NCBI GenBank assembly: GCA_050947035.1
Contig: JBMNVW010000003.1
Span: forward strand, 25,992-89,991
DNA length: 64,000 bases
Source of the DNA: Patescibacteria group bacterium
GTDB lineage: Bacteria > Patescibacteriota > Microgenomatia > 0-14-0-10-38-17
Reading direction: 5' to 3'
The translations under genes were made by a program, and so were the position numbers. This document shows positions 252 to 49,990 of this stretch, piece by piece (position 1 is the stretch's first letter; every line of letters begins with the position of its first letter). The notes under the pieces were generated by a model that searched no databases, had not been told where the DNA came from, and was given only the letters and a program-made list of their open reading frames with translations.

Positions 252-328
252 TGGTCGGGGATGCCGGACTCGAACCGGCGGCCTCACGCACCCCATGCGC
301 GCGCGCTAGCCATCTGCGCCAATCCCCG
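252..328 (-). tRNA. tRNA-Pro (anticodon GGG), CCA encoded
   Basis: Reverse complement folds as acceptor CGGGGAT/ATCCCCG, D-arm GCGC-AGATGGCTA-GCGC, anticodon stem CGCGC/GCGTG with loop AUGGGGU (U33, GGG, G37), T-arm GCCGG-TTCGAGT-CCGGC and ACCA tail. Close to the E. coli tRNA-Pro pattern CGGnGATTGGCGCAG. Confidence 0.85.
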
Positions 329-577: not shown

Positions 578-590
578 ATTAAAAATTTCA

Positions 591-700
591 CACTCGCGCA
601 CCCCGTCGGGCAGAGCCGTCAGCTGAAAAGCCTTTAGCTGGTAGCCTTCTGGGCGGCGCCCATGCGCGCGCTAAGCTAAATAATTGCGCCACATCCCGTT
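591..700 (-). other. degenerate tRNA-Pro-like 5' half (pseudo-tRNA fragment) with a ~52-nt insertion at the anticodon-loop position; no T-arm or 3' acceptor
   Basis: Minus-strand GGGATGTGGCGCA..GCGCGCGCATGGG[52-nt insert]GGGGTGCGCGAGTG is collinear with tRNA-Pro CGGGGATTGGCGCA..GCGCGCGCGCATGGGGTGCGTGAGG. The GCGCGCGCATGGG and GGGGTGCG blocks are shared. Confidence 0.45.
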
Positions 701-759
701 TACTTTTTTTAGAGCAAGTTGTATTTTAGCAAAACTTATGTCACAATAAAAGACAAGAT

Positions 760-27963: not shown

Positions 27964-29011
27964 CCGCGGAAGGGTCAAGAGCTGGCAGATAAGCTAAAAA
28001 ATTATTTAAGCCCTCAAAAACAAAAATAGGTTGTAAAAAACTTTGCGGCACTTCAGGATCAAAGTAGGCCAGGTAAATATTTCGGATAGTAATTGATTTA
28101 TCCTGGTCATTATCACCTAATCGAGCAATAAAACCTTGGCCAGAGTTTAATTCTTCCCAGGCGGTGACGGAAGATTTGATTGGATAGGTGCCAAAACGGT
28201 CATAGTTAATTGGATAGCGAAGATATTTACCAAAAATAAATTGCTGATAGCCGGACGAGGAAGTAACAATAAAAGAAATGTTGGCTTCATTAGGGTTGGG
28301 AGGCATGATGGGTCGATCATCGAGATCGGCTCGTCTTAAGTTAATTTTTAATAATTGACTTTCCGAAAGAGAAACAGTCTGGATTAATTGTTGTTTTTTA
28401 GAATCGTATTTTAAAAATAAATAGGTGGTTTTTTGGGGATCGATATCCTCAGGCCACATTTTGGCTTTGCCGAGAAGATTTTGGACAGCCCTAAGGGCTT
28501 GGGCCTGGCCTGGCCCTTGAGAGTTTACAAAAAAAGGTTTATTTTCCCAGGGGTAGTTAATCTCAAAATTATTATTAATAGTGTCAATTTTTAGAGTGGC
28601 CCCCGTTTCTTTGTTGCTAAAAGCAAACCGGGTTGAACTGATTTTTCCCAGTTCTCTACTAAAACCAAGGGCGGCAGCAGTTTCCCTGGTTTTATCTTCA
28701 TCGAAAAACTTTGGTCCTAAAATAGGAATAAAATAAACTCTTGCTTGAGTGCCGAGGTTGGGCAAATTACCATCAATAGTTTGCAATGAAAAAGAAAGAT
28801 CGTCCTTTTGATATTTTTCTGATCCAAAATTAAGGGAGGGAATTTTGCCTAAGGCTAAGTTGGGAGGCGGAGGTGGTTGGGGGTGACGCTCTTCCCAATA
28901 AGAACGAAAAGCTCTAGTGGCAGGAACAAGAATAATAATCGCCGCCAGACCAATAAGAGAAAATTTAATGAACTTTCGGGCATAGTGGGCAGTTTGGCTT
29001 AGTTGACTCAT
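27938..29011 (-). CDS. membrane-anchored hypothetical protein with a proline-rich segment
   Basis: ORF with N-terminal TM and a PQPPPPPN linker. No recognised domain. Confidence 0.3.
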   Translation of the reverse strand: MSQLSQTAHYARKFIKFSLIGLAAIIILVPATRAFRSYWEERHPQPPPPPNLALGKIPSLNFGSEKYQKDDLSFSLQTIDGNLPNLGTQARVYFIPILGPKFFDEDKTRETAAALGFSRELGKISSTRFAFSNKETGATLKIDTINNNFEINYPWENKPFFVNSQGPGQAQALRAVQNLLGKAKMWPEDIDPQKTTYLFLKYDSKKQQLIQTVSLSESQLLKINLRRADLDDRPIMPPNPNEANISFIVTSSSGYQQFIFGKYLRYPINYDRFGTYPIKSSVTAWEELNSGQGFIARLGDNDQDKSITIRNIYLAYFDPEVPQSFLQPIFVFEGLNNFLAYLPALDPSAVSQENQAN

Positions 29012-29076
29012 TTATTCGGCAGTGGATGATTTTCATGTTTGAGTATAGCATTGGCAAGTGATAAAATTCAAACCAA

Positions 29077-30493
29077 GATGAAACCTGTTCGTGTTCGTTT
29101 TGCCCCCTCACCCACTGGTGTTCCTCATATTGGCAATACCAGAACGGCTCTTTTTGCCTGGCTACTAGCTCGTCAAACCGGCGGCCAATTTATTGTTAGA
29201 GTGGAGGACACTGACCAAAAAAGATACCAAGAAAAATCTTTAGAAAAAATTTTAGCGATTTTAGAATTTTTAGATCTTTTCTGGGATGAGGGGCCAAAGG
29301 TTGGCGGTCCCCACCAACCCTACTTTCAGTCTCAGCGTCTAAAGCGCTACCAAGAAGTGGCTCAAAAACTGGTTGATAAGGGGGTTGCTTATTATTGTTT
29401 CTGTTCTTCGGCTCGGTTAAAAAATCTTCGCCAAGAACAAAAAGCCACTGGTAAAATTCCCAAATATGATCGCCATTGTTTGTCCTTATCAAAGTCAGAA
29501 ATTGAAAAGAAGAAAAAAACTACCCCCTATGTTATTAGATTGAAGATGCCCGATAATCAGGATTTTACCTGGAAGGATTTAGTCCAGGGTGAAATTACCA
29601 TTAATTCTAAAGATTTAGATGATCAGGTCTTGCTAAAATCAGACGGTTTTCCCACCTATCACTTAGGTGTAGTTGTTGATGATCACGATATGGAAATTAC
29701 CCACATTATTAGGGGAGTAGAATGGATTTCCTCGACTCCCAAACACCTCTTGCTGTATCAAGCTTTGGGTTGGGAGGTGCCCCAGATTATGCACCTGCCG
29801 CTTATTTTGGGGCCAGATAAGAGCAAATTGTCCAAAAGGCATGGAGCTAAGTCAATTCTTGATTATCGGGATGAGGGTTATTTAAAAGAAGCTCTGATTA
29901 ATTTTATGGCTTATCTTGGCTGGTCTTATCAAGATAACTCCCAACTGCTTTCCCTAGAAGAATTAGTAGGGGTTTTTGATTATAAAAAGATCCAAAAACA
30001 AAATGCTGTTTTTGATATTAAAAAACTAGATTGGTTTAATGCTCAATATATTAGAATGAAGAGCGATAAAGAATTAACTAAATTATTAAAACCCTTTGCT
30101 CCCGAAGAGGCGGATAAAGAGTTATTGATTAAAATTGTCCCTCTAGTTAAGGATCGGATGACGAAATTATCAGAATTTAGAAATTTAGCCGGGTTCTTTT
30201 TTGAGACTCCAAAAGTAGAAGAGACCCTTTTAGTCGAGAATGTTAAGGGGGATTATAAGAATTATTTGGCTAAAGCCATTGAGGCTCTTCAACCTATTAA
30301 AGAATGGCAGGAAAAAGAAATAACCCCAAGGTTAATGGATTTGATTGAAGAAAATGATTGGCCAACGGGCGATTTTTTTATGAGTTTGCGGATTGCTATT
30401 GCTGGTTCTCGTTATACCCCGCCGATTAACGAGTCAATGGAAATTTTAGGTAAGGAGGAAGCCTTAAAGAGAATAAAAAAACTACTTGACTGA
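29077..30493 (+). CDS. gltX: glutamate--tRNA ligase
   Basis: RFAPSPTGVPHIGN (HIGH), KLSKR (KMSKS). The ATG at 29077 is preferred. Confidence 0.9.
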
Positions 30494-30543
30494 TTTTTTT
30501 CCCCTCTTTTGATAAAATAGCATTGTTTATTGTTTTATTCTAT

Positions 30544-30615
30544 TGCCGGGTGGAGTAATGGTAGTCTCATCGCGCTCTGAACGCGAAGATCTAGGTTCGA
30601 GTCCTAGCCCGGCAA
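30544..30615 (+). tRNA. tRNA-Gln (anticodon CUG), CCA not encoded
   Basis: U1-A72 acceptor TGCCGGG/CCCGGCA, 3-bp D-stem, anticodon stem TCGCG/CGCGA with loop CUCUGAA, T-arm CTAGG-TTCGAGT-CCTAG. Confidence 0.8.
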
Positions 30616-30845
30616 CATTAGTTGCTGGGCTTAGACGAGAACCTAGTAAAGGCTCTGATTAACAAGACGAAAAAGCCGGTCGAGCTGTTGTTATATTAAT
30701 TAACAAGGCAAGAATACGGTCCTTGTCGTCTTCGAGTCCTAGCCGGGCAACATTAGTTGCTGGGTTTAGACGAGAACCTAGTAAAGGCTCTGATTAACAA
30801 GACGAAAAAGACAATCGTGTTGTTGTTATCTCAACCAAGCTATCA
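30597..30845 (+). repeat. ~134-nt tandem direct duplication (about 1.9 copies) beginning inside the tRNA-Gln T-loop
   Basis: TTCGAGTCCTAGCCCGGCAACATTAGTTGCTGGGCTTAGACGAGAACCTAGTAAAGGCTCTGATTAACAAGACGAAAAAG at 30597-30675 is repeated at 30731-30810 with 2 substitutions. The following ~30 nt are also similar. Confidence 0.75.
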
Positions 30846-30920
30846 CCTCAGGGTTTCCACCTTAAAGGTGTCAAAAGGGTTTTTTTTGAATAATAGAGGA
30901 CAAGGGGTTAAAATATAGCT

Positions 30921-40717: not shown

Positions 40718-40916
40718 CCAGCAAGACTTATCAGAAGCCTTTGGCAAATTAGAAAAAATTGCCGAGGAGTTTGAGAAAGGGGAAGTTGATCTAGAAGAGG
40801 GGATTGCCAAACTTGAGACAGGCTTGGAGCTGGCCGCCTTTTTGAAAAAACAATTGTCTAAGATGGAAAATAAAGTGACTAAGATTAAAGAAAAATACCA
40901 GGAAATTGACGATTAG
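40698..40916 (+). CDS. xseB: exodeoxyribonuclease VII small subunit
   Basis: 72-aa helical protein overlapping the xseA end. LEE.I..LE.G.L.LEE. Confidence 0.8.
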   Translation: MTTKKVNQQDLSEAFGKLEKIAEEFEKGEVDLEEGIAKLETGLELAAFLKKQLSKMENKVTKIKEKYQEIDD

Positions 40917-41025
40917 CAGTTTTTATGTTAGACTGCTAAATAACTCATTAAATTAGCCTCTTTTGTCTTAATCTTCTAAAAAAGAGAGCAAATTTTAAAA
41001 CGAATTTTTATAAAATAATTTTTTT

Positions 41026-43410
41026 ATGTCTCTGATTTTAAAACCAGAAAAGAAAAACCAAGAACAAAAAGAAATGACCGTTGTTGCTCTTAGAGATACG
41101 GTTATTTTCCCTCGTACCGAGGCAACGCTTACCTTTGGCCGACCTCAATCAGTAGCGGCAGTTAATCAGGCTTATAAAGAGAAAAAGGCTGTTTTGTTAG
41201 TTTGCCAAAAAAACCCTCGAGTTAATAATCCCGACCAAGACGACCTTTATCAAATTGGCACTATTGCTAAAATTGATAATATCTTAAAGTCTGGTAAGGC
41301 TATTTATGTTATTGTCAGAGGGGAAAGTCGGGCTCGTCTAGAAAGTCTTTCTCAGAAAAAACCCTTTTTAGCCGGACAAATTAGCTCCTTACCAAAAGGG
41401 AAAATTGCCTCTGGAAAAGATATTAATGTTTTGGCTGGGCTTTTAATTGAGCAGTTAAAGAAAGCGATGAGTTTGGGTAAACCGGTTGATCCTCAAGCTT
41501 TGGGTAATTTGTCTTCAGATGACCCTCAGGAACTGGTTAATCGAATTGCCATGGTGGTGGAGATTTCTGGTAAAGACAAACAGTCTTTATTGGAAATTGA
41601 TGATTTGGCCAAGCGAGCCAAAAAAGTGGTTGAATATTTGGTCCAAGAGATTAAAATTTTGGAGCTTGATCAAAAGATTAGTTCTAAGGCCCAAGACAAG
41701 TTTGATAAGTCAATGAGGGAGGCAATTTTAAAACAGCGTCGAGAGATGATTGATCGGGAATTAGGGAAAATAGGCTCTAAGTCCGGTAACCCCGAAATTG
41801 AAAAATTAAGAAAAAAAATCTCGGCCAGTAAGATGCCCAAAAAAATTGCCAAAAAAGCCAAATCGGAGCTGTCTCGATTGGCCAAAATGTCGCCCATGAA
41901 CCCGGAAAGTGGCTATATTCATTCTTATTTAGAGTGGTTAACCGACATTCCTTGGGTTAAAAAATCTAAAAGCAACCTTGATATTAAAAAGGCCAAAAAA
42001 ATTCTTGATCAAGACCATTATGGTTTAAAAAAAATTAAAGAGAGAATTTTAGAGCACTTGGCGGTAATTCAGTTGCAAAATAAACAAAAAGAAGAAGCTT
42101 GTTCACCGACCATTCTTTGTTTTATTGGCCCCCCCGGAGTAGGAAAAACTTCGGTTGGTAAGTCAATCGCTCGAGCAATGGGAAGAGAGTTTGTTCGTAT
42201 TTCTTTGGGGGGCTTGCGAGATGAAGCCGAAATTAGAGGTCATAGAAGGACTTATGTTGGTGCTTTGCCGGGGCGCTTGATTCAGGGCATGAAAGAGGCG
42301 GGGACAATTAATCCGGTTTTTATGTTGGATGAGATCGACAAGGTGGGCAATGATTTTCGTGGCGACCCGTCGGCGGCCCTATTGGAAGCTTTGGATCCAG
42401 AGCAAAACAAGGAGTTTTCCGATCATTATTTGGGAGTGCCCTATGATTTGTCCCAAGTCTTTTTTATTACTACCGGCAATGTTTTAGACACTATTCCGCC
42501 GGCTCTTCGAGATCGAATGGAAATAATTCGTTTTCCCGGCTATACCGGTGAAGAAAAATACCATATTGCCAAAGACTATCTTTGGTCCAAAGAGACCCAA
42601 AACCGTGGGTTAGGCAAAAATAAATTTAAATTAACAACAAAAGCCTATTACGAAATTATCGATCGTTATACTAAAGAAGCTGGAGTTCGTCAGTTGCAAA
42701 GAGAGATGGCTCGTTTAGCTAGAAAATTGGCTAGAGAAATTGCTGAAGGAAAAAAGATGGAGGAAAAGATTGGCGTTAATCGGGTCCGTTCTTTGTTCGG
42801 GCCAGCCCAATTTTCTAAAACTGCTGCCGATAGTCAGGATGAGATTGGTAAGGCCACTGGTTTGGCTTGGACTCAGGCAGGAGGAGAAATTTTGTTTATC
42901 GAAGTGGCTCTAATGCCCGGCAAAGGGAAAGTTTTATTAACGGGGAAATTGGGCGATGTGATGAAGGAATCTTGTCGAGCGGCTATTTCTTACGTCCGCT
43001 CCCATTGGCAGATCTATAAGCTAAAGAAGGATTTTGCCGAAAAAATTGATATTCATGTTCACGTGCCAGAGGGGGCGGTTTCTAAGGATGGTCCCTCAGC
43101 TGGTGTGGCTATTGCCTCGGCGGTTGTTTCGGCTTTAACCAAAAAACCCCTAAAGCACGAAATCGGCATGACCGGAGAGATCACCCTTCGCGGACGAGTT
43201 TTGGAGATTGGTGGGGTAAAGGAAAAGGTTTTAGCTGCCCACAGAGCTGGTCTAAAAACAATAATTTTGCCCAAGAGTAATAAAAAGGACCTGGAAGATA
43301 TTCCTTCTCGAATCAAGAAAGAGTTAGAGTTTATTTTTGCTGAACATCTAAGTCAGGTTCTTGATCAAGCTTTGGTAAAGAAAAAACCTGACAAAACAAA
43401 GTCTTCTTAA
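41026..43410 (+). CDS. lon: ATP-dependent protease Lon
   Basis: LON N domain, GPPGVGKTS, catalytic PKDGPSAG..KEK dyad region. Confidence 0.95.
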   Translation: MSLILKPEKKNQEQKEMTVVALRDTVIFPRTEATLTFGRPQSVAAVNQAYKEKKAVLLVCQKNPRVNNPDQDDLYQIGTIAKIDNILKSGKAIYVIVRGESRARLESLSQKKPFLAGQISSLPKGKIASGKDINVLAGLLIEQLKKAMSLGKPVDPQALGNLSSDDPQELVNRIAMVVEISGKDKQSLLEIDDLAKRAKKVVEYLVQEIKILELDQKISSKAQDKFDKSMREAILKQRREMIDRELGKIGSKSGNPEIEKLRKKISASKMPKKIAKKAKSELSRLAKMSPMNPESGYIHSYLEWLTDIPWVKKSKSNLDIKKAKKILDQDHYGLKKIKERILEHLAVIQLQNKQKEEACSPTILCFIGPPGVGKTSVGKSIARAMGREFVRISLGGLRDEAEIRGHRRTYVGALPGRLIQGMKEAGTINPVFMLDEIDKVGNDFRGDPSAALLEALDPEQNKEFSDHYLGVPYDLSQVFFITTGNVLDTIPPALRDRMEIIRFPGYTGEEKYHIAKDYLWSKETQNRGLGKNKFKLTTKAYYEIIDRYTKEAGVRQLQREMARLARKLAREIAEGKKMEEKIGVNRVRSLFGPAQFSKTAADSQDEIGKATGLAWTQAGGEILFIEVALMPGKGKVLLTGKLGDVMKESCRAAISYVRSHWQIYKLKKDFAEKIDIHVHVPEGAVSKDGPSAGVAIASAVVSALTKKPLKHEIGMTGEITLRGRVLEIGGVKEKVLAAHRAGLKTIILPKSNKKDLEDIPSRIKKELEFIFAEHLSQVLDQALVKKKPDKTKSS

Positions 43411-43416
43411 AGCAAA

Positions 43417-43445
43417 TTGATTAATGTTAACTTCCGAGGTATAAT
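43417..43445 (+). promoter_or_regulatory. near-consensus sigma70-type promoter (TTGATT-17-TATAAT) immediately after the lon stop
   Basis: TTGATT 43417-43422, 17-nt spacer, TATAAT 43440-43445. Confidence 0.4.
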
Positions 43446-43579
43446 ATTAGCTATAGGTCTTATTTCAAGAGACCGTTTTCATTCTTAAAAACAAAAAACC
43501 AAGCTGATAAGCCAGCGACTGTTTTTTTGTTTTGAACTTTTATAAACAGGCGGTAGGAAGTTTCTTCTAGGAGGAAAAA

Positions 43580-43957
43580 ATGAAGAAAAGAGGAAGAACC
43601 GGGTGTTGGTTTGTTTTTTTGATTTTGTTATTTATTGTTTGCTACGTGTTTATTAACACCTTTTGGCAACCCCTCTCGGAAGGAACGAGGGTAAAAATTA
43701 ACGGCAAGGGTTATTTTAATCCCCTTTGCTGCGGCGATTATCCGTTCGAGAACTGGAGTGGAAGCCAGCGCCGGCAGTGGTGTTGGAACAGAGCCACTCT
43801 AGTGGAAGAAACCATTGGAGTGATTGAGGCCGGAGGGGATTATGAAACCCACTACAGTAGCCGGGGAGGATCGGCCTATAGAGTGGTTTTCACCACTACT
43901 TTAGGTAATCAGAGAACCTTGTGGTTCTCGGTTGATTCTCTAGAAAAGATTGACTAG
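43580..43957 (+). CDS. Cys/Trp-rich membrane-anchored hypothetical protein
   Basis: AGGAGG SD. N-terminal TM. Confidence 0.35.
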   Translation: MKKRGRTGCWFVFLILLFIVCYVFINTFWQPLSEGTRVKINGKGYFNPLCCGDYPFENWSGSQRRQWCWNRATLVEETIGVIEAGGDYETHYSSRGGSAYRVVFTTTLGNQRTLWFSVDSLEKID

Positions 43958-43964
43958 GCTTGTA

Positions 43965-44004
43965 GGGGGTCGTGTTCAAAATTTTGCGTTTTAACGCGAC
44001 CCCC
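43965..44004 (+). terminator. GC-rich hairpin terminator
   Basis: GGGGGTCGTG..CGCGACCCCC, a 10-bp stem, then ATTTTT. Confidence 0.5.
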
Positions 44005-44062
44005 CCAGCCATTTTTCAATTCTTCCTACCGCCCCTTTTCTTTCCCCAAAGCCTTCTTTTGG

Positions 44063-44080
44063 AGAGATCCTGGATCTATC
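44063..44080. repeat. copy of the GATAGATCCTGGATCTATC palindrome family (imperfect left arm)
   Basis: agAGATCCTGGATCTATC. Confidence 0.7.
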
Positions 44081-44202
44081 ACGGCTTATTGTGAGGGTTA
44101 TTTTTGAGGTTCTGGTAAACTCGGCCCAGTTTCAAGCGATCCGGTTTCTTTAGAAATTGATTTTTGTTTCACCAGGATATTTTTTTAGGCTATGGGACTA
44201 AG

Positions 44203-44290
44203 GATAAATACGACACCGTATTTATTAATAAAAGAATAAAAATATTATTTATCGCTTTATCCTGACAAGTAAATACTTTACCGTATTTAG
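44203..44290. promoter_or_regulatory. bipartite palindrome pair: GATAAATACGACACCGTATTTATT, then TAAATACTTTACCGTATTTA 65 nt downstream
   Basis: Same two-site arrangement and spacing as at 61163-61249 and 61800-61887. Confidence 0.6.
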
Positions 44291-44350
44291 AAAGAAGAGT
44301 TTACAAATATCCGCTAACAATTTTCTATCGGAATTTTATTTAATGGTTTT

Positions 44351-44373
44351 AAGTAGCCCCAACCAGATTCGAA
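44351..44373 (-). repeat. 23-bp direct repeat of the tRNA-Glu 3' end (T-loop + acceptor 3' strand + 3 nt), 110 nt downstream of the tRNA
   Basis: AAGTAGCCCCAACCAGATTCGAA is identical at 44351-44373 and 44481-44503. Confidence 0.8.
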
Positions 44374-44483
44374 GATGACACGGACCATTTTCTTGCCGTG
44401 AGGGTTGGTGTAATGACAGCGCGGTTGTTTTTCTTGTTTTGATTGTCAGAATTCTTGACCAGTTCGGATCCGATTGGGCCAAG

Positions 44484-44555
44484 TAGCCCCAACCAGATTC
44501 GAACTGGTATTACTAGGATGAGAACCTAGCGTCCTAACCATTAGACGATGGGGCC
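44484..44555 (-). tRNA. tRNA-Glu (anticodon CUC), CCA not encoded
   Basis: Reverse complement: GGCCCCA-TC-GTC-TAATGGTTAG-GAC-G-CTAGG-TTCTCAT-CCTAG-TAAT-ACCAG-TTCGAAT-CTGGT-TGGGGCT-A. G1-U72 wobble. Confidence 0.8.
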
Positions 44556-44720
44556 TTGAGAAAAATTCCTAATTTTTAATGATTTAAATGGCCTAATTAC
44601 TTTTTTTGAAATTTGGGACTTGGGATTTATTTAGAATAATTAAAAACTATTTTCTTAATTATACTAAACCAGCCCCAATTTTACCAAAAAATCGATTTTT
44701 GACTAATCCCAGATTTTAAT

Positions 44721-44749
44721 TTGACAATTGTCAATAAGAATAATATAAT
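44721..44749 (+). promoter_or_regulatory. perfect consensus sigma70 promoter (TTGACA-17-TATAAT); its -35 lies in the 14-bp palindrome TTGACAATTGTCAA
   Basis: TTGACA 44721-44726, spacer 17, TATAAT 44744-44749, ~110 nt upstream of greA. Confidence 0.5.
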
Positions 44750-44860
44750 TTTCTTCACTGTTTTGTGACGCACCCCCTAAAAGGGTCCATTTAATCGGGA
44801 TTTTTCCTTACCTCTTTTTAGTGTTTTTAACAAAAAGATTATTTAATTAAAAATTATTGT

Positions 44861-45322
44861 ATGAATCAAAAAAAGCTAATTACCAAACAAGGACTAGCCG
44901 ATCTTAAGGACAAGCTGGCTAAGCTTGAGGCTCGGCGACCCAAGGTGGTTGATCGAGTAGAAACGGCCAGACAAATGGGCGATTTAAGAGAAAATAGCGA
45001 ATATCATGCCGCCAGAGAGGATTTGGTTCTTTTAGATACTCAAGTTAATGAGCTAAAAGAAATTTTACTTAATGCTAAGGTTGTTGATAAAAATAACGGA
45101 TCATCTTTTGTTTCTTTGGAGAGTCTGGTTACCGTTAAGAACGGTCAAAACAAGAAAATAGATTATCGTGTTGTTGGCGAGCACGAATCTGATCCACTAA
45201 AGGGCAAGATTTCTTATACTTCTCCCTTGGGCCAGGCTCTGATGAATAAAAAAGTTGGTGAAAAGGTGGCTGTTAAAACCCCCAAGGGTAAGAGTAAATA
45301 TGAAATTGTGGCCATTAAATAA
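44861..45322 (+). CDS. greA: transcription elongation factor GreA
   Basis: Coiled-coil N-terminus with ARQMGDLRENSEYHAARE. FKBP-like C-terminus. Confidence 0.9.
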   Translation: MNQKKLITKQGLADLKDKLAKLEARRPKVVDRVETARQMGDLRENSEYHAAREDLVLLDTQVNELKEILLNAKVVDKNNGSSFVSLESLVTVKNGQNKKIDYRVVGEHESDPLKGKISYTSPLGQALMNKKVGEKVAVKTPKGKSKYEIVAIK

Positions 45323-45352
45323 GTCTTCTTTGTATGATAAACTAATAGCCAA

Positions 45353-46798
45353 ATGGCTGGTCGTTTAGAAAACATTAAAGAAGAAAGGATTGCCAAACTT
45401 AAAAGGCTTCGTTCTTTAGGAATTGATCCTTATCCTCCCCGCTCTCCAAAACATGATTTAATTATTAAGGCCCGGAAAAAAACCGGTCAAAAAACGACCG
45501 TAGTAGGAAGAGCGATGGCCTGGCGGGCTCATGGTGGGATGACCTTTGCCGATTTAAAAGATAGTTCAGGCCAGATTCAGCTGGCTTTTTTTTCTGATGA
45601 TTTGCCAGAAAAAGCCTATCAACAACTCGAGTTGTTGGATATTGGTGATTTTTTGGCCGTTTCCGGTTTGGTTTTTAAGACTAAACGAGGCGAAATAACC
45701 GTGCGAGTCTCCTCTTGGCAAATTTTGGCCAAATCGCTAAGGCCGCTGCCCAATAAGTGGGAGGGGCTGCAAGATGTTGAAACTCGTTCGCGTAAAAGAT
45801 ATTTAGATCTTCTTGTTAACGAACAGTCACGAAAAACCTTTATTTTAAGAAGCCAAATCGTTAGGGCAATGAGAGAAATTCTAGACGATGAGGGCTTTAT
45901 GGAAGTAGAAACTCCCACTCTTCAACCAATTTATGGTGGCGCCTCGGCCCAGCCTTTTGTTACTCACCACAATACCCTTGACGCCGATCTTTATTTAAAA
46001 ATTTCTGACGAGCTTTATTTGAAACGCTTGATTATTGGTGGCTTAGATAAAGTTTATGAAATTGATCATAATTTTAGAAATGAGGGGGTTGATAAAAGTC
46101 ATAATCCGGAATTTACTCTGATGGAATGCTATTGGGCTTATGCTGATTACAACGATATGATGGATTTGACGGAAAAGATTTATTCTCAAATTGCCCAAAA
46201 AGTTTTAGGAACAACAAAAATTGTTTTTGGGAAACAAAAAATTGATCTTAAAACCCCTTGGCCCAGGCTGTCGATGTTTGCGGCGATCGAAAAATATTTG
46301 GGTTGGAATCCAGAAGAAATCTCTGACCAGGAACTAAAAGAAAAGCTGGCCCAGAAAGGAGAAGAGCTGGTTAATGGTTATAATCGGGGCTTGGCGATAG
46401 CCAAAATTTTTGAGGAAGTTGAACCCCAATTAAAGGGGCCAATTTTTATTACCGATTTTCCTAAAGAGACCACTTCTCTTTGCAAGCTAAAACCGGATAA
46501 CCCGGATTTAGTTGAGCGTTTTGAACCTTACATCGCCGGTTTTGAGATTGGCAATGCTTATTCAGAGCTAAATGATCCGCTTTTACAACGTCAGTTTTTT
46601 GAGGAGCAAGTAAAAATGCGAGAAGCCGGCGATAAAGAAGCCTCACCCATGGATGAAGATTTTTTGGAAGCGATGGAGCATGGTATGCCTCCAACTGGAG
46701 GCTTGGGCCTGGGCGTTGATCGATTAGTGATGCTTTTGACCGGTCAGGAAAATATTCGCGATGTAATTCTTTTTCCCACTCTTAAGCCAAAAAAATGA
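45353..46798 (+). CDS. lysS: lysine--tRNA ligase (class II)
   Basis: OB anticodon-binding domain, motifs 1-3 (FRNEG, GGLGLGVDRL). Confidence 0.95.
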   Translation: MAGRLENIKEERIAKLKRLRSLGIDPYPPRSPKHDLIIKARKKTGQKTTVVGRAMAWRAHGGMTFADLKDSSGQIQLAFFSDDLPEKAYQQLELLDIGDFLAVSGLVFKTKRGEITVRVSSWQILAKSLRPLPNKWEGLQDVETRSRKRYLDLLVNEQSRKTFILRSQIVRAMREILDDEGFMEVETPTLQPIYGGASAQPFVTHHNTLDADLYLKISDELYLKRLIIGGLDKVYEIDHNFRNEGVDKSHNPEFTLMECYWAYADYNDMMDLTEKIYSQIAQKVLGTTKIVFGKQKIDLKTPWPRLSMFAAIEKYLGWNPEEISDQELKEKLAQKGEELVNGYNRGLAIAKIFEEVEPQLKGPIFITDFPKETTSLCKLKPDNPDLVERFEPYIAGFEIGNAYSELNDPLLQRQFFEEQVKMREAGDKEASPMDEDFLEAMEHGMPPTGGLGLGVDRLVMLLTGQENIRDVILFPTLKPKK

Positions 46799-47355
46799 AC
46801 AGAGACCAAATTTTAGCGATTATTAAGCGTCGAGTTGATAACGAAAATATTATTAAGCACATGTTGGCCATGGAGGCTTTTATGAGAGGTTTGGCCCGGC
46901 ATTTGGACAAGGATGAGAAAGCTTGGGGTTTGGCCGGTCTAGTTCATGATATAGACTATAATGACCAAACTTCCCCCCAAGAACATGGCTTAAAAACAAG
47001 AGAAATTTTAGCTGAAGAAAAAATAGATTTGTCAGGCGATATTCTTCAAGCCGTTGCGGCCCATAATTGGCACAATAATGGAGTTAAACCAAAGACCCTA
47101 ATGGATTGGGCCTTGTTTTGTGGCGACTCATTAACAGGCTTGGTTGTTGCTTGTGCTCTGGTAAGACCGGATAAAAAATTATCCTCGGTTACGGTGGAAT
47201 CAGTTTTAAAAAAATTTCCTCAAAAGCGTTTTGCCGCTGGCACCAGAAGAGAAGACATTAAAATGTGCCAGGATAAATTAGGGATTTCTTTGAAAGAATT
47301 TGTTAAAATTGCTCTTGAATCAATGCAAGAAATAAGTGAAGAGTTAGGTTTATAA
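46795..47355 (+). CDS. HD-domain phosphohydrolase
   Basis: HMLAMEAFMRGLA...LVHDIDY...AHNWH. HD superfamily. Confidence 0.6.
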   Translation: MNRDQILAIIKRRVDNENIIKHMLAMEAFMRGLARHLDKDEKAWGLAGLVHDIDYNDQTSPQEHGLKTREILAEEKIDLSGDILQAVAAHNWHNNGVKPKTLMDWALFCGDSLTGLVVACALVRPDKKLSSVTVESVLKKFPQKRFAAGTRREDIKMCQDKLGISLKEFVKIALESMQEISEELGL

Positions 47356-47388
47356 AAAACTATAGGAAATTCAGCCTAAGATTATTAA

Positions 47389-47407
47389 TAGATCCTGGAT
47401 CTCTATC
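47389..47407. repeat. copy of the GATAGATCCTGGATCTATC palindrome family, 7 nt upstream of the serS start
   Basis: TAGATCCTGGATCTCTATC. Confidence 0.7.
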
Positions 47408-47413
47408 AATATT

Positions 47414-48685
47414 ATGCTCGATATTAATTTCATCCGCCGGAATCAAGAGCTAGTTAAGAAGGCGGCTCGTGACAAACAAATGAACGAGGGGATAGTTGAT
47501 AAGCTTATTATTGTTGATGATAAACGTCGAGAGCTTATTAAAGCCATAGATGACCTGCGGGCCAAAAGAAACGAGGCGGCCAAGAACAAAGACATTCCTT
47601 TGGGAAAAGAGGTTAAGGTTAAGCTTAAAAAGCTAGAACCGCAGCTAAGAGAAGTTCAAGACCAGTATCGACAGTTAATGCTTCAAGTTCCCAACTTGCC
47701 ATCCGATGACACCCCAATTGGTAAAACTAGTGAAGATAATCAAGAGATTGAGACATGGGGGAAAATACCCGAATTTGATTTTCCTGTTCAGGACCATATT
47801 GCTTTGGGAGAAAAATTAGATTTAATTGATTTGGAAAAGGGGGCGCAAACAGCCGGTTTTAGAGGCTATTATTTAAAAAATGCCGCGGCCAAACTTCATT
47901 TTGCTGTTCTTTTTTACGCTTGGCAAAAGATAATTGAGGCTGGTTTTACTCCCATGGTGCCGCCAACAATTTTACGAGAATTTGCCCTGGTCGGTAGTGG
48001 CCATTTTCCTTTTGGCAAAGAAGACGTTTATCAAATTGCCAACCCCTCTCGTCTTGCTTCAGGTGAAGAATCAGGAGAACCAGAATATTTGGCCGGGACG
48101 GCTGAACCATCCCTATTGGCTTATTTTGCCAATACCACCTTGGAAGAAAAGGATTTACCAGTTATGGTCGCCGGCTGGACCCCCTGTTATCGGTCAGAGG
48201 CGGGTAGTTACGGTAAGGACACCCAAGGGATTTATCGGATTCACGAATTTTCTAAGGTCGAACAGGTGGTTCTTTGTCAGGCCGATAATCAAGTTTCTGA
48301 TCAGTGGTTAGAAAAGATGAAAGATGTTTCGGTTGGGATTTTACAAGATTTTGGGCTTCCCTATCGAGTGGTTAAGGTTTGTACCGGTGATATGGGAGCA
48401 GGAAAGCGGAAAATGTATGATGTTGAGACCTGGATGCCGTCTCGAAAAGGCTATGGTGAAACCCACTCAGACTCAAACCTGACCGATTGGCAATCGCGGC
48501 GGTTAAATATTTCCTATAAAAACAAAAAAGGTCGAAAAACACTTGTTCACGCTTTAAATAATACCGTTTTGGCTAGCCCCAGGATTTTAATTGCTATTTT
48601 AGAAAACAATCAACAAAAGGATGGTTCTGTTATTATCCCCAAAGTATTAAGAAGCTTGGTTGGCCTTAACAAAATTACCCCATAA
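47414..48685 (+). CDS. serS: serine--tRNA ligase
   Basis: N-terminal coiled-coil. Class II motifs including TPCYRSEAGSYGKDT. Confidence 0.95.
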   Translation: MLDINFIRRNQELVKKAARDKQMNEGIVDKLIIVDDKRRELIKAIDDLRAKRNEAAKNKDIPLGKEVKVKLKKLEPQLREVQDQYRQLMLQVPNLPSDDTPIGKTSEDNQEIETWGKIPEFDFPVQDHIALGEKLDLIDLEKGAQTAGFRGYYLKNAAAKLHFAVLFYAWQKIIEAGFTPMVPPTILREFALVGSGHFPFGKEDVYQIANPSRLASGEESGEPEYLAGTAEPSLLAYFANTTLEEKDLPVMVAGWTPCYRSEAGSYGKDTQGIYRIHEFSKVEQVVLCQADNQVSDQWLEKMKDVSVGILQDFGLPYRVVKVCTGDMGAGKRKMYDVETWMPSRKGYGETHSDSNLTDWQSRRLNISYKNKKGRKTLVHALNNTVLASPRILIAILENNQQKDGSVIIPKVLRSLVGLNKITP

Positions 48686-49990
48686 AAACTTGTCTTCAGA
48701 ATCGATTATTTTAACAGGAAGGATTTCACCGATTAAATCTTTTTTCTTGTTTTCTTTAGTCTTGATTTTGGTTGGCCAATAGTTATCAGAAAGCCCCCAC
48801 CAACCGTAAGAAGTAGGTTTTAAAATTAATATTTTTCTGGTTGTGCCAAGCAAAAAGTTTCTTTCTTTTTTTCGATTTTTCTTGATGAGGGTAAGAAGTT
48901 TATTTCTTCGTTTCTTTTTGATTTGATCAGAAATTTTGGACCAGGCTTTATTTTTAACCATTTTTTTAGCTTTAGTTTGCGGACGAGGAGAATAAGAAAA
49001 AAGATGGCCAAAGGAAAATCGGTTTTTTTTAATAAATTCTTGAGTTTGGTCAAATTCTTGATCGGTTTCGCCGGGAAAACCAATCATAATGTCGGCCCGA
49101 AGAGTAAAATAAGGAAGAATTTCTTTAATATAATGTAGCGATTGGCTCAATTGTTTTAAATTGGTCTGGCGGTTCATGCGCTCTAAAACCGTTTCTGATC
49201 CGGACTGAAGGGCCAAATGCCAATATGAAGATAAGCGTTGATTTTTTTCTTGATCGGTAATAAAAATATTGATTAGTTTTTGATCGATTAATTTGGGGGT
49301 TAGTGAGCTTAGTGACAATCGGGGGATTTTAGTTTTTTTTAAGATTTCCTCAATTAAATCGGCAAAAGTAGTCGGCGAATCAAGATCCTGACCAAAAAGA
49401 GAAAGATTGATACCACAAATAATAGCCTCTTTTGCTCCGGCCTGATGAGCCTGATTAATTTCTTTGACGATTTGTTTTGGTTTTTTACTAGTTTGCTTTG
49501 TTCTTAAATAGGGAACAATACAATAAGAACAAAAATGGTTACAACCATCCTGAATTTTAACAAAAGCTCGCTTGATAGATCCTGGATCTATCAGAGCCTT
49601 TTGTATAGGGAGATCCTGGATCTGGCAAGAAAAAGCGAAGTGTTTGGTAATAATTTTAGGGATGGTTGATTTTTTTTCGTTGGTAATGAATAAATCAGCC
49701 GGTGGTAATTGCTTTTTTTTAGAAACTTTGAGCCAGAGGTTGGCCGCACAACCGGTAGCGATTAAGAAACAATTAGGGTAAATTTTTTTAAAATGGCGAA
49801 TGGCTTTAGCGCTTTCTCGTTCTCCTTTTTGGGTAATAACGCAGGTATTGATAATAACAATATCGGGTGACTGGCCATCTTTGGCCTTCTGATAACCAAG
49901 GTTGATAAGCTGATTACTGATTTTTTTAGTTTCGGCTTGGTTAACTCGGCAACCTAAGGTTTGGGTTAAAAAAGTAGCTTTGGCGGACAT
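48647..49990 (-). CDS. MiaB-family radical-SAM methylthiotransferase (MtaB/RimO-like, with a C-terminal TRAM-like region)
   Basis: TLGCRVNQAE..INTCVIT, IQDGCNHFCSYCIVP radical-SAM motif. Confidence 0.8.
   Translation of the reverse strand: MSAKATFLTQTLGCRVNQAETKKISNQLINLGYQKAKDGQSPDIVIINTCVITQKGERESAKAIRHFKKIYPNCFLIATGCAANLWLKVSKKKQLPPADLFITNEKKSTIPKIITKHFAFSCQIQDLPIQKALIDPGSIKRAFVKIQDGCNHFCSYCIVPYLRTKQTSKKPKQIVKEINQAHQAGAKEAIICGINLSLFGQDLDSPTTFADLIEEILKKTKIPRLSLSSLTPKLIDQKLINIFITDQEKNQRLSSYWHLALQSGSETVLERMNRQTNLKQLSQSLHYIKEILPYFTLRADIMIGFPGETDQEFDQTQEFIKKNRFSFGHLFSYSPRPQTKAKKMVKNKAWSKISDQIKKKRRNKLLTLIKKNRKKERNFLLGTTRKILILKPTSYGWWGLSDNYWPTKIKTKENKKKDLIGEILPVKIIDSEDKFLWGNFVKANQAS
49574..49623. 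repeat. two copies of the GATAGATCCTGGATCTATC-family palindrome inside the MTTase CDS (perfect 19-mer at 49574-49592, AGATCCTGGATCT at 49611-49623)
   Basis: These encode ..CQIQDLPIQKALIDPGSIKRAF.. in the minus-strand protein linker. Confidence 0.8.

Follow-up and report, generated by a model that had tools for sequence, protein, structure and literature searches.

The 64,000-nucleotide (nt) stretch of DNA analyzed here, referred to as the window, belongs to contig JBMNVW010000003.1 of a Patescibacteria group bacterium and carries a gene-less module directly downstream of its tRNA-Glu(CUC) and tRNA-Gln(CUG) genes. A whole unit of the module is about 130-135 nt long and consists of tRNA-specific ends around a common core. 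We put the chances at about even that it is a non-autonomous site-specific insertion module which is directed at the T-loop and restores the 3' end of the tRNA. This reading is supported by an exact junction at tRNA position T54, a common core with tRNA-matched ends, a constant size, the decay of tandem copies, unit-wise differences between relatives, a native flank behind the displaced tRNA end, a core under constraint whose history departs from the host tree, gene conversion between adjacent copies, and the precedent of class II integrases.

An earlier note on this DNA had reported a perfect 23-bp direct repeat of the tRNA-Glu 3' end, which our searches confirm with the anatomy it described. 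The 23-mer AAGTAGCCCCAACCAGATTCGAA has exactly two copies in the window (44351-44373 and 44481-44503), and this count is unchanged at 3 mismatches, while shuffled sequence gave 0.00 matches. Thus, within the window it is not found at many unrelated places, as a generic repeat would be. Read in the tRNA sense, the 23-mer comprises TTCGAAT (the T-loop from T54), CTGGT (the T-stem 3' strand), TGGGGCT (the acceptor 3' strand), A (the discriminator) and CTT. The second copy lies downstream of tRNA-Glu in the same orientation as the tRNA, with 107 nt between the copies and a start-to-start spacing of 130. The suggestion that the repeat is an attachment (att)-type core also agrees with our results, as an identity block that begins at T54 and extends slightly beyond the 3' end fits a T-loop-crossing integrase. 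The features at this site are as follows.

44483-44555, minus strand: tRNA-Glu(CUC), 73 nt, without an encoded CCA (ARAGORN; Rfam tRNA, 63.8 bits).
44481-44503, minus strand: B1, the first copy of the 23-mer, i.e., the 3' part of the working tRNA-Glu plus CTT (repeat search).
44458-44478, minus strand: A, an imperfect inverted copy of tRNA-Glu positions ~49-69 (inverted-repeat search and folds).
44374-44457, minus strand: the conserved core of ~84 nt (alignments; nhmmer profile match at 44374-44456, E=3e-19).
44351-44373, minus strand: B2, the second exact copy of the 23-mer, without the T-stem 5' strand (repeat search and relatives).

The inverted copy A lies 9 nt from B1, is 86% complementary to 44488-44508 over 21 nt, and forms in folds a long hairpin with B1 or, alternatively, with B2. 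The core contains the blocks AAGAATTCTGA ... CCGCGCTGTCATTACACCAAC ... GGCAAGAAA-N9-TGTCATC, and its end GGCAAGAAAATGGTCCGTGTCATC abuts T54 of B2. The proximal junction at B1 has the natural symmetry of the T-stem, and the distal junction, made up of GTCRTC, T-loop and T-stem 3' strand, is non-symmetric. No open reading frame (ORF) is present in the 107-nt insert at tRNA-Glu. A small peptide encoded in the core was considered and rejected, as the ATG of the Glu copy is missing from the Gln copy. The same applies to an antisense pseudo-tRNA in which the core would be the reverse complement of the rest of the tRNA, since similarity does not extend beyond A and ARAGORN was negative on that strand. 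Terminal inverted repeats of the transposon type were not present between the two ends of the module.

At tRNA-Gln, the same architecture is found with a repeat period of 135 nt and with two units in tandem.

30544-30616, plus strand: tRNA-Gln(CUG), directly after the glutamyl-tRNA synthetase (GluRS) gene (ARAGORN; Rfam).
30617-30751, plus strand: module M1, with spacer and A1 at 30617-30647, core at 30648-30730 and B2 at 30731-30751.
30752-30875, plus strand: module M2, truncated, with spacer and A2 at 30752-30782, the left part of the core at 30783-30837 and a tail hairpin CACCT..AAGGTG.

The M1 core is homologous to the Glu core and ends in GGCAAGAATACGGTCCTTGTCGTC, after which B2 starts at T54 and is identical to the tRNA-Gln 3' end at 20/21 positions. 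A1 is an inverted copy of the T-arm and acceptor strand of tRNA-Gln itself, so the A segments at the two sites are each copied from their own tRNA. M2 has no third copy of B, and its ortholog stands alone after tRNA-Gln in the related locus L038; M2 is the older of the two units. The short distance between the repeats at tRNA-Glu had been taken to mean that any cargo has gone, but the ~107 nt turn out to be a defined, conserved module that is cargo-less in all copies.

Related loci (~20) were gathered by synteny, using GreA and GluRS homologs, and by one pattern scan of a metagenome collection. Seven of the 15 matches in that scan were real, all of them directly after a tRNA and all without cargo; the other eight lay in unrelated coding DNA. 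The state of the module is listed below by tRNA gene and locus, for tRNA-Glu with the identity of GreA.

tRNA-Glu, L005 (98% GreA identity): module present.
tRNA-Glu, L006 and L007 (87%): module present.
tRNA-Glu, L008, L009 and L028 (75%): expanded form with extra hairpin-bounded inserts of ~80 nt.
tRNA-Glu, L034 and L035 (Shapirobacteria, 65%): a full unit and a decayed unit.
tRNA-Glu, L010 (66%): absent.
tRNA-Glu, L032 and L033 (69%): absent.
tRNA-Gln, L024 and L025: module present.
tRNA-Gln, L038: truncated unit only.
tRNA-Gln, L037 and L040: absent.
tRNA-Gln, L036: vestigial.
tRNA-Met(CAU), L014: module present.

The simple copies at Glu, Gln and Met sites all have TGTYRTC in front of B2, which starts with T54 at a distance of 108-120 nt from the tRNA. 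Everywhere, A and B2 correspond to the resident tRNA, including lineages in which the Glu T-stem is GCGAG/CTCGC instead of ACCAG/CTGGT. Cargo was found in no module copy, neither among the seven real metagenome matches nor in any syntenic locus examined. As residues of equal length and common descent remain at Glu, Gln and Met sites, independent random deletions would not be expected to have produced them.

Tandem units with decayed distal copies occur at tRNA-Gln (window and L024), tRNA-Glu (L034) and tRNA-Met (L014). At tRNA-Gln, the truncated unit is alone in L038, and the window and L024 have the truncated unit plus one complete unit of 135 nt. Such unit-wise presence and absence between relatives is compatible with excision and re-integration but is no proof of it. 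The idea in the earlier note that tRNA-targeting elements are active in this lineage stands in part: whole units differ between relatives and modules turn over, but no integrase was found in the searches described below.

The Glu flank behind B2 (in L006: GGGGTCATTAAAGAAAAAT) resembles the flank directly after the module-less tRNA-Gln in L040 and L036, and B2 with its flank therefore looks like an original tRNA end. Directly after the module-less tRNA-Gln at L040:4064-4130 and L036:5211-5280 we also observed a motif, GGTYATTAAAGAAAAATCGGGG...ACCCCGATTTCTT, which forms a strong hairpin and whose first part recurs after B2 at the Glu site of L006. This motif is probably the native tRNA trailer or terminator of the lineage. 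The 'empty' Glu site of L032 was considered as a deletion remnant (AGACAACCGC), but this was rejected because the 10-mer match was reached in 9/300 shuffles.

Several of the related loci show further changes around the same tRNA genes. The expanded Glu module (L008:3350-3625, minus strand; the same in L009, L015, L018 and L028) has a hairpin-bounded segment of ~86 nt between the tRNA end and A, and a segment of ~75 nt (CCCACC...GGTGGG) inside the T-loop of B2 (TTCG|...|GATT). The motifs CGCC(C)ACCA, CATGAG and GGCGAATG are common to both inserts, which may represent either another small element that seeks T-loops or an expansion of an RNA. L008:3626-3698 and L009:3626-3698 have the same flanks and module and differ in the anticodon stem-loop, which is that of Glu(CUC) in L008 and of Glu(UUC) in L009; the anticodon arm has thus been swapped within an otherwise identical tRNA gene. 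At tRNA-Gln, L038 and L039 share 99.6% identity over the stretch from GluRS to the end of the tRNA, and their sequences part precisely at the tRNA 3' end; both differences within tRNA-Gln lie 3' of the anticodon. In L039 (4626-4822), the tRNA is followed by an encoded CCA and unrelated DNA with a T-arm-like fragment, CCCCGTTCGAATCCGAC, before the contig stops 197 nt on. This DNA may be the edge of a larger integrated element. Additionally, a gene resembling LAGLIDADG homing endonucleases lies between the GluRS stop codon and tRNA-Gln, overlapping the first bases of the tRNA, in L024 (2127-3077, plus strand), L038 (2532-3143) and L039 (3954-4565). Its product has 316 amino acids in L024 (Pfam LAGLIDADG_3, E=4.5e-7) and 203 in L038 and L039. 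The window does not have this gene, and the gap between GluRS and the tRNA is 50 nt. A link between the LAGLIDADG-like gene and module turnover at tRNA-Gln is possible.

To assess the history of the core, its identity was compared with that at the third codon positions of nearby genes, taken as a nearly neutral yardstick. The Gln M1 cores of the window and L024 agree at 79/83 positions (95%) against 76% for the GluRS yardstick (p=7e-6), and the truncated M2 cores reach 73% against the same 76%, which is about neutral. The Glu cores of L005 and L006 are 94% identical (yardstick 72%, p=4e-7). The window core is 79% identical to that of L005 (yardstick 89%, p=0.004) and likewise 79% to that of L006, where the yardstick is 71% and the difference is not significant (p=0.15). 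Distant pairs of Glu cores are 67-78% identical with a yardstick of 54-61%. The flanking genes at the Glu site give the tree ((window, L005), L006), from which the core identities deviate. Nor are the cores grouped by tRNA type, as the Gln core of L025 is 78% identical to Glu cores and 67-72% to other Gln cores. A1 and A2 at tRNA-Gln have the same derived bases within each genome, which shows gene conversion between adjacent copies. Taken together, the comparisons indicate that the module is an insertion, that B2 and its flank are the displaced original tRNA end, that the core is constrained, and that units are gained, lost and replaced.

We also analyzed the module as a possible RNA. One element of the surroundings bears on its transcription.

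44658-44687, minus strand: promoter-like site TTGGTA-18-TATAAT, ~100 nt upstream of tRNA-Glu (consensus scan only).

Neither a promoter inside the module nor a terminator between tRNA and module was found, and with a promoter upstream only, co-transcription of the module as a tRNA trailer is plausible. When tRNA and module are folded together, the T-arm and acceptor strand of the tRNA pair with A in a ~21-bp hairpin and the 5' acceptor strand pairs with B2, with energies well below those of shuffled controls (z=-3.9 for Glu, -5.4 for Gln). In folds of the module alone, the A:B2 helix is the outer closing stem in seven of eight sequences, the exception being L025, and the single-sequence z-scores are modest and similar on both strands. 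Structure and covariation were compared across 8-9 module sequences. Only two short, invariant hairpins are predicted in the core, where one pair varies between G.U and A-U, and compensatory changes are restricted to the A:B2 helix, in which they are expected by construction. A short hairpin, GRCA...TGYC, lies 3 nt from the right end of the module but is invariant and hence uninformative; at the left end there is the B1:A hairpin. The loop of the A hairpin has the consensus NNRAGAA. A hammerhead-like reading of the conserved UCUGA was rejected by eye, as the CUGANGA/GAAA core is not conserved and L034 has no CUGA. Overall, the evidence on RNA properties is suggestive without being decisive.

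If the module is a site-specific insertion module, one unit would consist of B (starting at T54 and reaching a few nt beyond the 3' end), a short spacer, A, and a core of ~84 nt ending in TGTCRTC. Such a unit would enter the tRNA gene between positions 53 and 54, at the boundary of the T-loop, where its own B would complete a working tRNA, and the original tRNA 3' end would be pushed downstream as B2, still joined to its native flank. Repeated insertion at one tRNA would stack units, of which the older, distal ones would decay. The module is, or was, presumably moved in trans by a recombinase encoded elsewhere, most likely a T-loop-targeting tyrosine integrase, for which the core and A might serve as cis-acting sites of the arm or accessory type. 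Gene conversion between the close repeats might keep B2 identical to B1.

Several observations weigh against this mechanism. A Pfam search of every ORF of at least 150 amino acids in the window detected no recombinase of any kind in the 64 kb: integrases, including those of integrons, transposases, including the HUH type, reverse transcriptases and TnpB-like proteins were all missing. Precomputed Pfam matches of called genes revealed none beside any of the ~20 related loci either. The earlier note had proposed to look for an episomal or integrated carrier of the attP core; no episomal or viral carrier of the module core was found, and viral contigs, phage and plasmid records, metagenome contigs and genome representatives contained no cargo-bearing relative. 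A double-stranded circle of only 130 bp is not plausible as an integrase substrate, given its small size. In a symmetric core-type site, the sequence to the left of the T-loop at the B2 junction would have to repeat the T-stem 3' strand in inverted form, which GTCRTC does not. In L006, the T-stem type is the old one in the fossil distal unit but the new one in B2; simple integration does not predict this, and gene conversion is needed in addition. Finally, the module persists at the Glu site down to 65% GreA identity in streamlined genomes, which fits a host function equally well.

Other searches for relatives gave the same picture. Annotated phages and plasmids had no BLAST match to the module. 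Rfam 15 gave no module match at gathering thresholds or at E<=10; tRNAs and RNase P RNA were the only matches, the best others having E values of at least 0.9, far short of the threshold. The strict right-end pattern GGCAAGAANNNGGTCCNTGTCNNNTTC had four matches among the genome representatives, in high-GC Actinobacteria and Alphaproteobacteria with no tRNA nearby, and these were dismissed as chance. Three patterns run on viral contigs gave 0, 0 and 1 match, the single one in a metagenome-assembled genome (MAG) of a giant virus with E=1 against the core profile, and this was likewise put down to chance. Rfam and the searched collections of phages, plasmids and viruses thus lack the module family, and a described equivalent was not found in the literature.

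The main rival explanation is a host function in the form of a functional RNA, co-transcribed as a 3' trailer, which would act as a three-way switch on tRNA maturation or be a mimic of the tRNA top half on which tRNA enzymes act. A would then trap the precursor in the ~21-bp hairpin, B2 would be an identical decoy that pairs with A or with the 5' acceptor strand, and the core would bind a factor. We consider this possible but doubtful. It would account for the single upstream promoter-like site without an intervening terminator, the low energy of the joint folds, the recurrent A:B2 closing stem, the constrained core with A and B2 tracking the local T-stem type, and the loop of A, which has a consensus of its own and is unlike a decaying copy. 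The G.U to A-U variation in the core is compatible with the sense strand only, and the module has been kept in streamlined genomes over deep divergence. However, there is no Rfam match even at the relaxed threshold, the core hairpins are few, short and invariant, compensatory changes occur in the A:B2 helix alone, as its construction would lead one to expect, and the strands do not differ in the modest z-scores of the module alone. Tandem decay, gain and loss of whole units, patchiness and host-tree incongruence are unexpected for a vertically inherited host RNA, concerted evolution between copies can make B2 equal to B1 without selection, and in the L008 lineage B2 is split by the ~75-nt insertion. 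The plain scar proposed in the earlier note, left by a prophage or island after integration in the T-loop and subsequent deletion of everything between its ends, is very unlikely. A repeat from T-loop to 3' end is typical of class II integrase att sites (PMC1762012), and partial tRNA 3' fragments are common integration products. Independent deletions would, however, not leave collinear homologs of equal length at Glu, Gln and Met in several lineages; the residue is moreover under constraint, the module is old and common to relatives rather than recent, and no full-length relative with the same arms was found in the collections searched. Local tandem duplication by replication slippage, or an assembly artefact, is extremely improbable. 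Direct repeats 130 nt apart can arise in this way, and unequal crossing-over between B1 and B2 could add or remove units, but the same TGTYRTC|T54 junction and core are found at three different tRNAs and in independent assemblies from NCBI, JGI, ENA and Logan, an inverted copy is present too, and the chance expectation of the 23-mer is 0. Plain scar and chance duplication are therefore largely excluded.

A further alternative is movement as single-stranded DNA, in which A and B2, ~85 nt apart, might fold into a hairpin that imitates the tRNA gene, and a host recombinase or HUH-type enzyme might join this hairpin to the gene, much as with the folded attP of CTX phage, integron attC sites or the palindromic miniature elements derived from IS200/IS605. 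By analogy with known systems this is conceivable, but we regard it as unlikely. It would give A a role that ordinary att models do not have, and a circle of 130 nt is feasible as a single strand but not as a duplex. The complementarity of A/B2 and A/B1 is ~80-86% with a bubble in the T-loop part, and the GRCA...TGYC hairpin near the right end would be the second one in such a structure. On the other hand, the window shows no HUH transposase, TnpB or integron integrase, and IS200/IS605 elements make no target duplication, whereas a 21-25-nt direct repeat is present here. The two copies in the window are also oppositely oriented relative to a uniform GC skew. We tentatively entertain, as something less probable than not, that the module represents a new kind of element which encodes its specificity in nucleic acid, with an antisense A and a sense B2 of the tRNA target around a scaffold, specific to the Candidate Phyla Radiation (CPR) and without a protein of its own. 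This reading has two possible versions: an A/B2 hairpin that imitates the tRNA gene for insertion and retargeting, or an RNA switch in which tRNA:A and A:B2 pairing alternate to gate maturation.

The reading as an insertion module is best compared with elements of known class II integrases, which target the T-loop. In mycobacteriophage Ms6, integration specificity is set by an attP core of 26 bases that spans the T-loop to the 3' end, and retargeting by a change of the identity block is documented for these integrases (PMC1762012). Class II att sites resemble the module in that the identity block runs from the T-loop to just past the 3' end (26 bases in Ms6, 21-25 in the module), the insert rebuilds the tRNA, the displaced 3' end forms a direct repeat, and a change of the block switches the tRNA. 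The module, however, has no integrase gene and no cargo, and its insert is ~110 nt of non-coding DNA. It also has an inverted copy of the target and a non-symmetric distal motif, TGTCRTC, and it spans Glu, Gln and Met tRNAs. A second comparison is with cis-mobilizable elements (CIMEs; Pavlovic et al. 2004, reviewed in PMC5704250), which, like the module, have att-like flanks, lack recombination genes and can build up by accretion into tandem arrays that include decayed copies, in the 3' end of a target gene. Unlike these, the module is 130-135 nt long, uniform and conserved across tRNA targets, and pattern scans and BLAST revealed no parent in the form of a full-length integrative and conjugative element (ICE), integrative and mobilizable element (IME) or prophage, but only cargo-less copies or chance matches. 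CIMEs are decayed ICE or IME remnants, much larger, and have identifiable full-length relatives. The module is thus not a member of class II integrase elements or of CIMEs as defined. It also differs from the palindromic elements derived from IS200/IS605, which have no target-site duplication.

Folded single-strand att sites are known from the attP(+) hairpin of the CTX phage and from integron attC, which are acted on by XerCD or IntI and directed at dif or attI. They resemble the module in having two imperfect inverted repeats ~60-140 nt apart which, when folded, mimic a duplex target with central mismatches. The module differs in its tRNA-gene target and long direct repeat, and there is no evidence of XerCD or IntI acting on it. 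Among RNAs, tRNA 3' trailers such as the small RNA sponge 3'ETS-leuZ of E. coli and the tRNA-like domains of tmRNA and YrlA are known. These are non-coding and co-transcribed with, or similar to, a tRNA, as the module would be; its A:B2 helix partly imitates the stack of acceptor and T-stem, and by analogy it could be released by tRNA-processing enzymes. In contrast to such RNAs, the module holds both an antisense and a sense copy of the 3' part of the upstream tRNA, and its mimicry of the acceptor is imperfect, with one register shift and mismatches.

The third tRNA gene of the window was also said to carry a self-duplication.

252-328, minus strand: tRNA-Pro(GGG).

The claim that all three tRNA genes of the window are self-duplicated is correct for the 3' ends of tRNA-Glu and tRNA-Gln, but tRNA-Pro has no 3'-end repeat in the 251 nt available downstream and no module core. 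A degenerate copy of its 5' half lies at 585-712 (minus strand), ~370 nt upstream of the gene. This copy includes the acceptor strand, the D-arm and the anticodon stem up to CATGGG, with an exact 13-mer at 292-304 and 659-671. It has no module core and is a self-similarity of another kind than those at tRNA-Glu and tRNA-Gln.

The rest of the window contains an RNase P RNA (Rfam) and only housekeeping genes, including RecA, RuvABC, SecA/DF, several aminoacyl-tRNA synthetases, the CCA-adding enzyme, Lon and GreA. Judged by its homologs of GreA and GluRS, the window comes from CPR Microgenomates, close to 'Microgenomates bacterium 39_6' and Candidatus Shapirobacteria. Compared with contig NPIE01000344.1 of a relative, identity at synonymous sites is 76% at GluRS (28365-30498) and ~90% around GreA, LysRS and Lon (40869-49320), and this strongly mosaic divergence along the genome suggests recombination between lineages. 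A conserved protein of 119-125 amino acids is encoded between Lon and tRNA-Glu in module-bearing relatives (ORF125; 43580-43957, plus strand, in the window). It has a hydrophobic N-terminus and no Pfam family, is 61-64% identical in L006 and L008, and is replaced or absent in L010, L032 and L034. A role as protein partner of the module was rejected, as it has no nucleic-acid-related match. In the interval from ORF125 to the module, an AT-rich hairpin motif (AAATACGG-N4-6-CGTATTT / AAATACGGTAAAGTATTT) is present twice, at 44205-44245 and 44270-44310. Both copies are kept in L005, L006 and L036; they may form a bidirectional terminator or belong to another small repeat family.

Incomplete copies of tRNA genes are usually taken for footprints of prophages or islands, and here the footprint is a defined, conserved, gene-less unit found at several tRNA genes. 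The mobile elements and non-coding RNAs of CPR bacteria are poorly known, and these modules give false positives as tRNA fragments and cause confusion in assembly and annotation near tRNA genes in CPR MAGs. If the module is a miniature site-specific element, recombination at tRNA genes would be able to support a parasite of only ~130 nt. A recombinase with an easily re-written specificity, of interest for targeted integration, would then be implied as well. If the module is instead an RNA device, it would represent a new way to control tRNA maturation.

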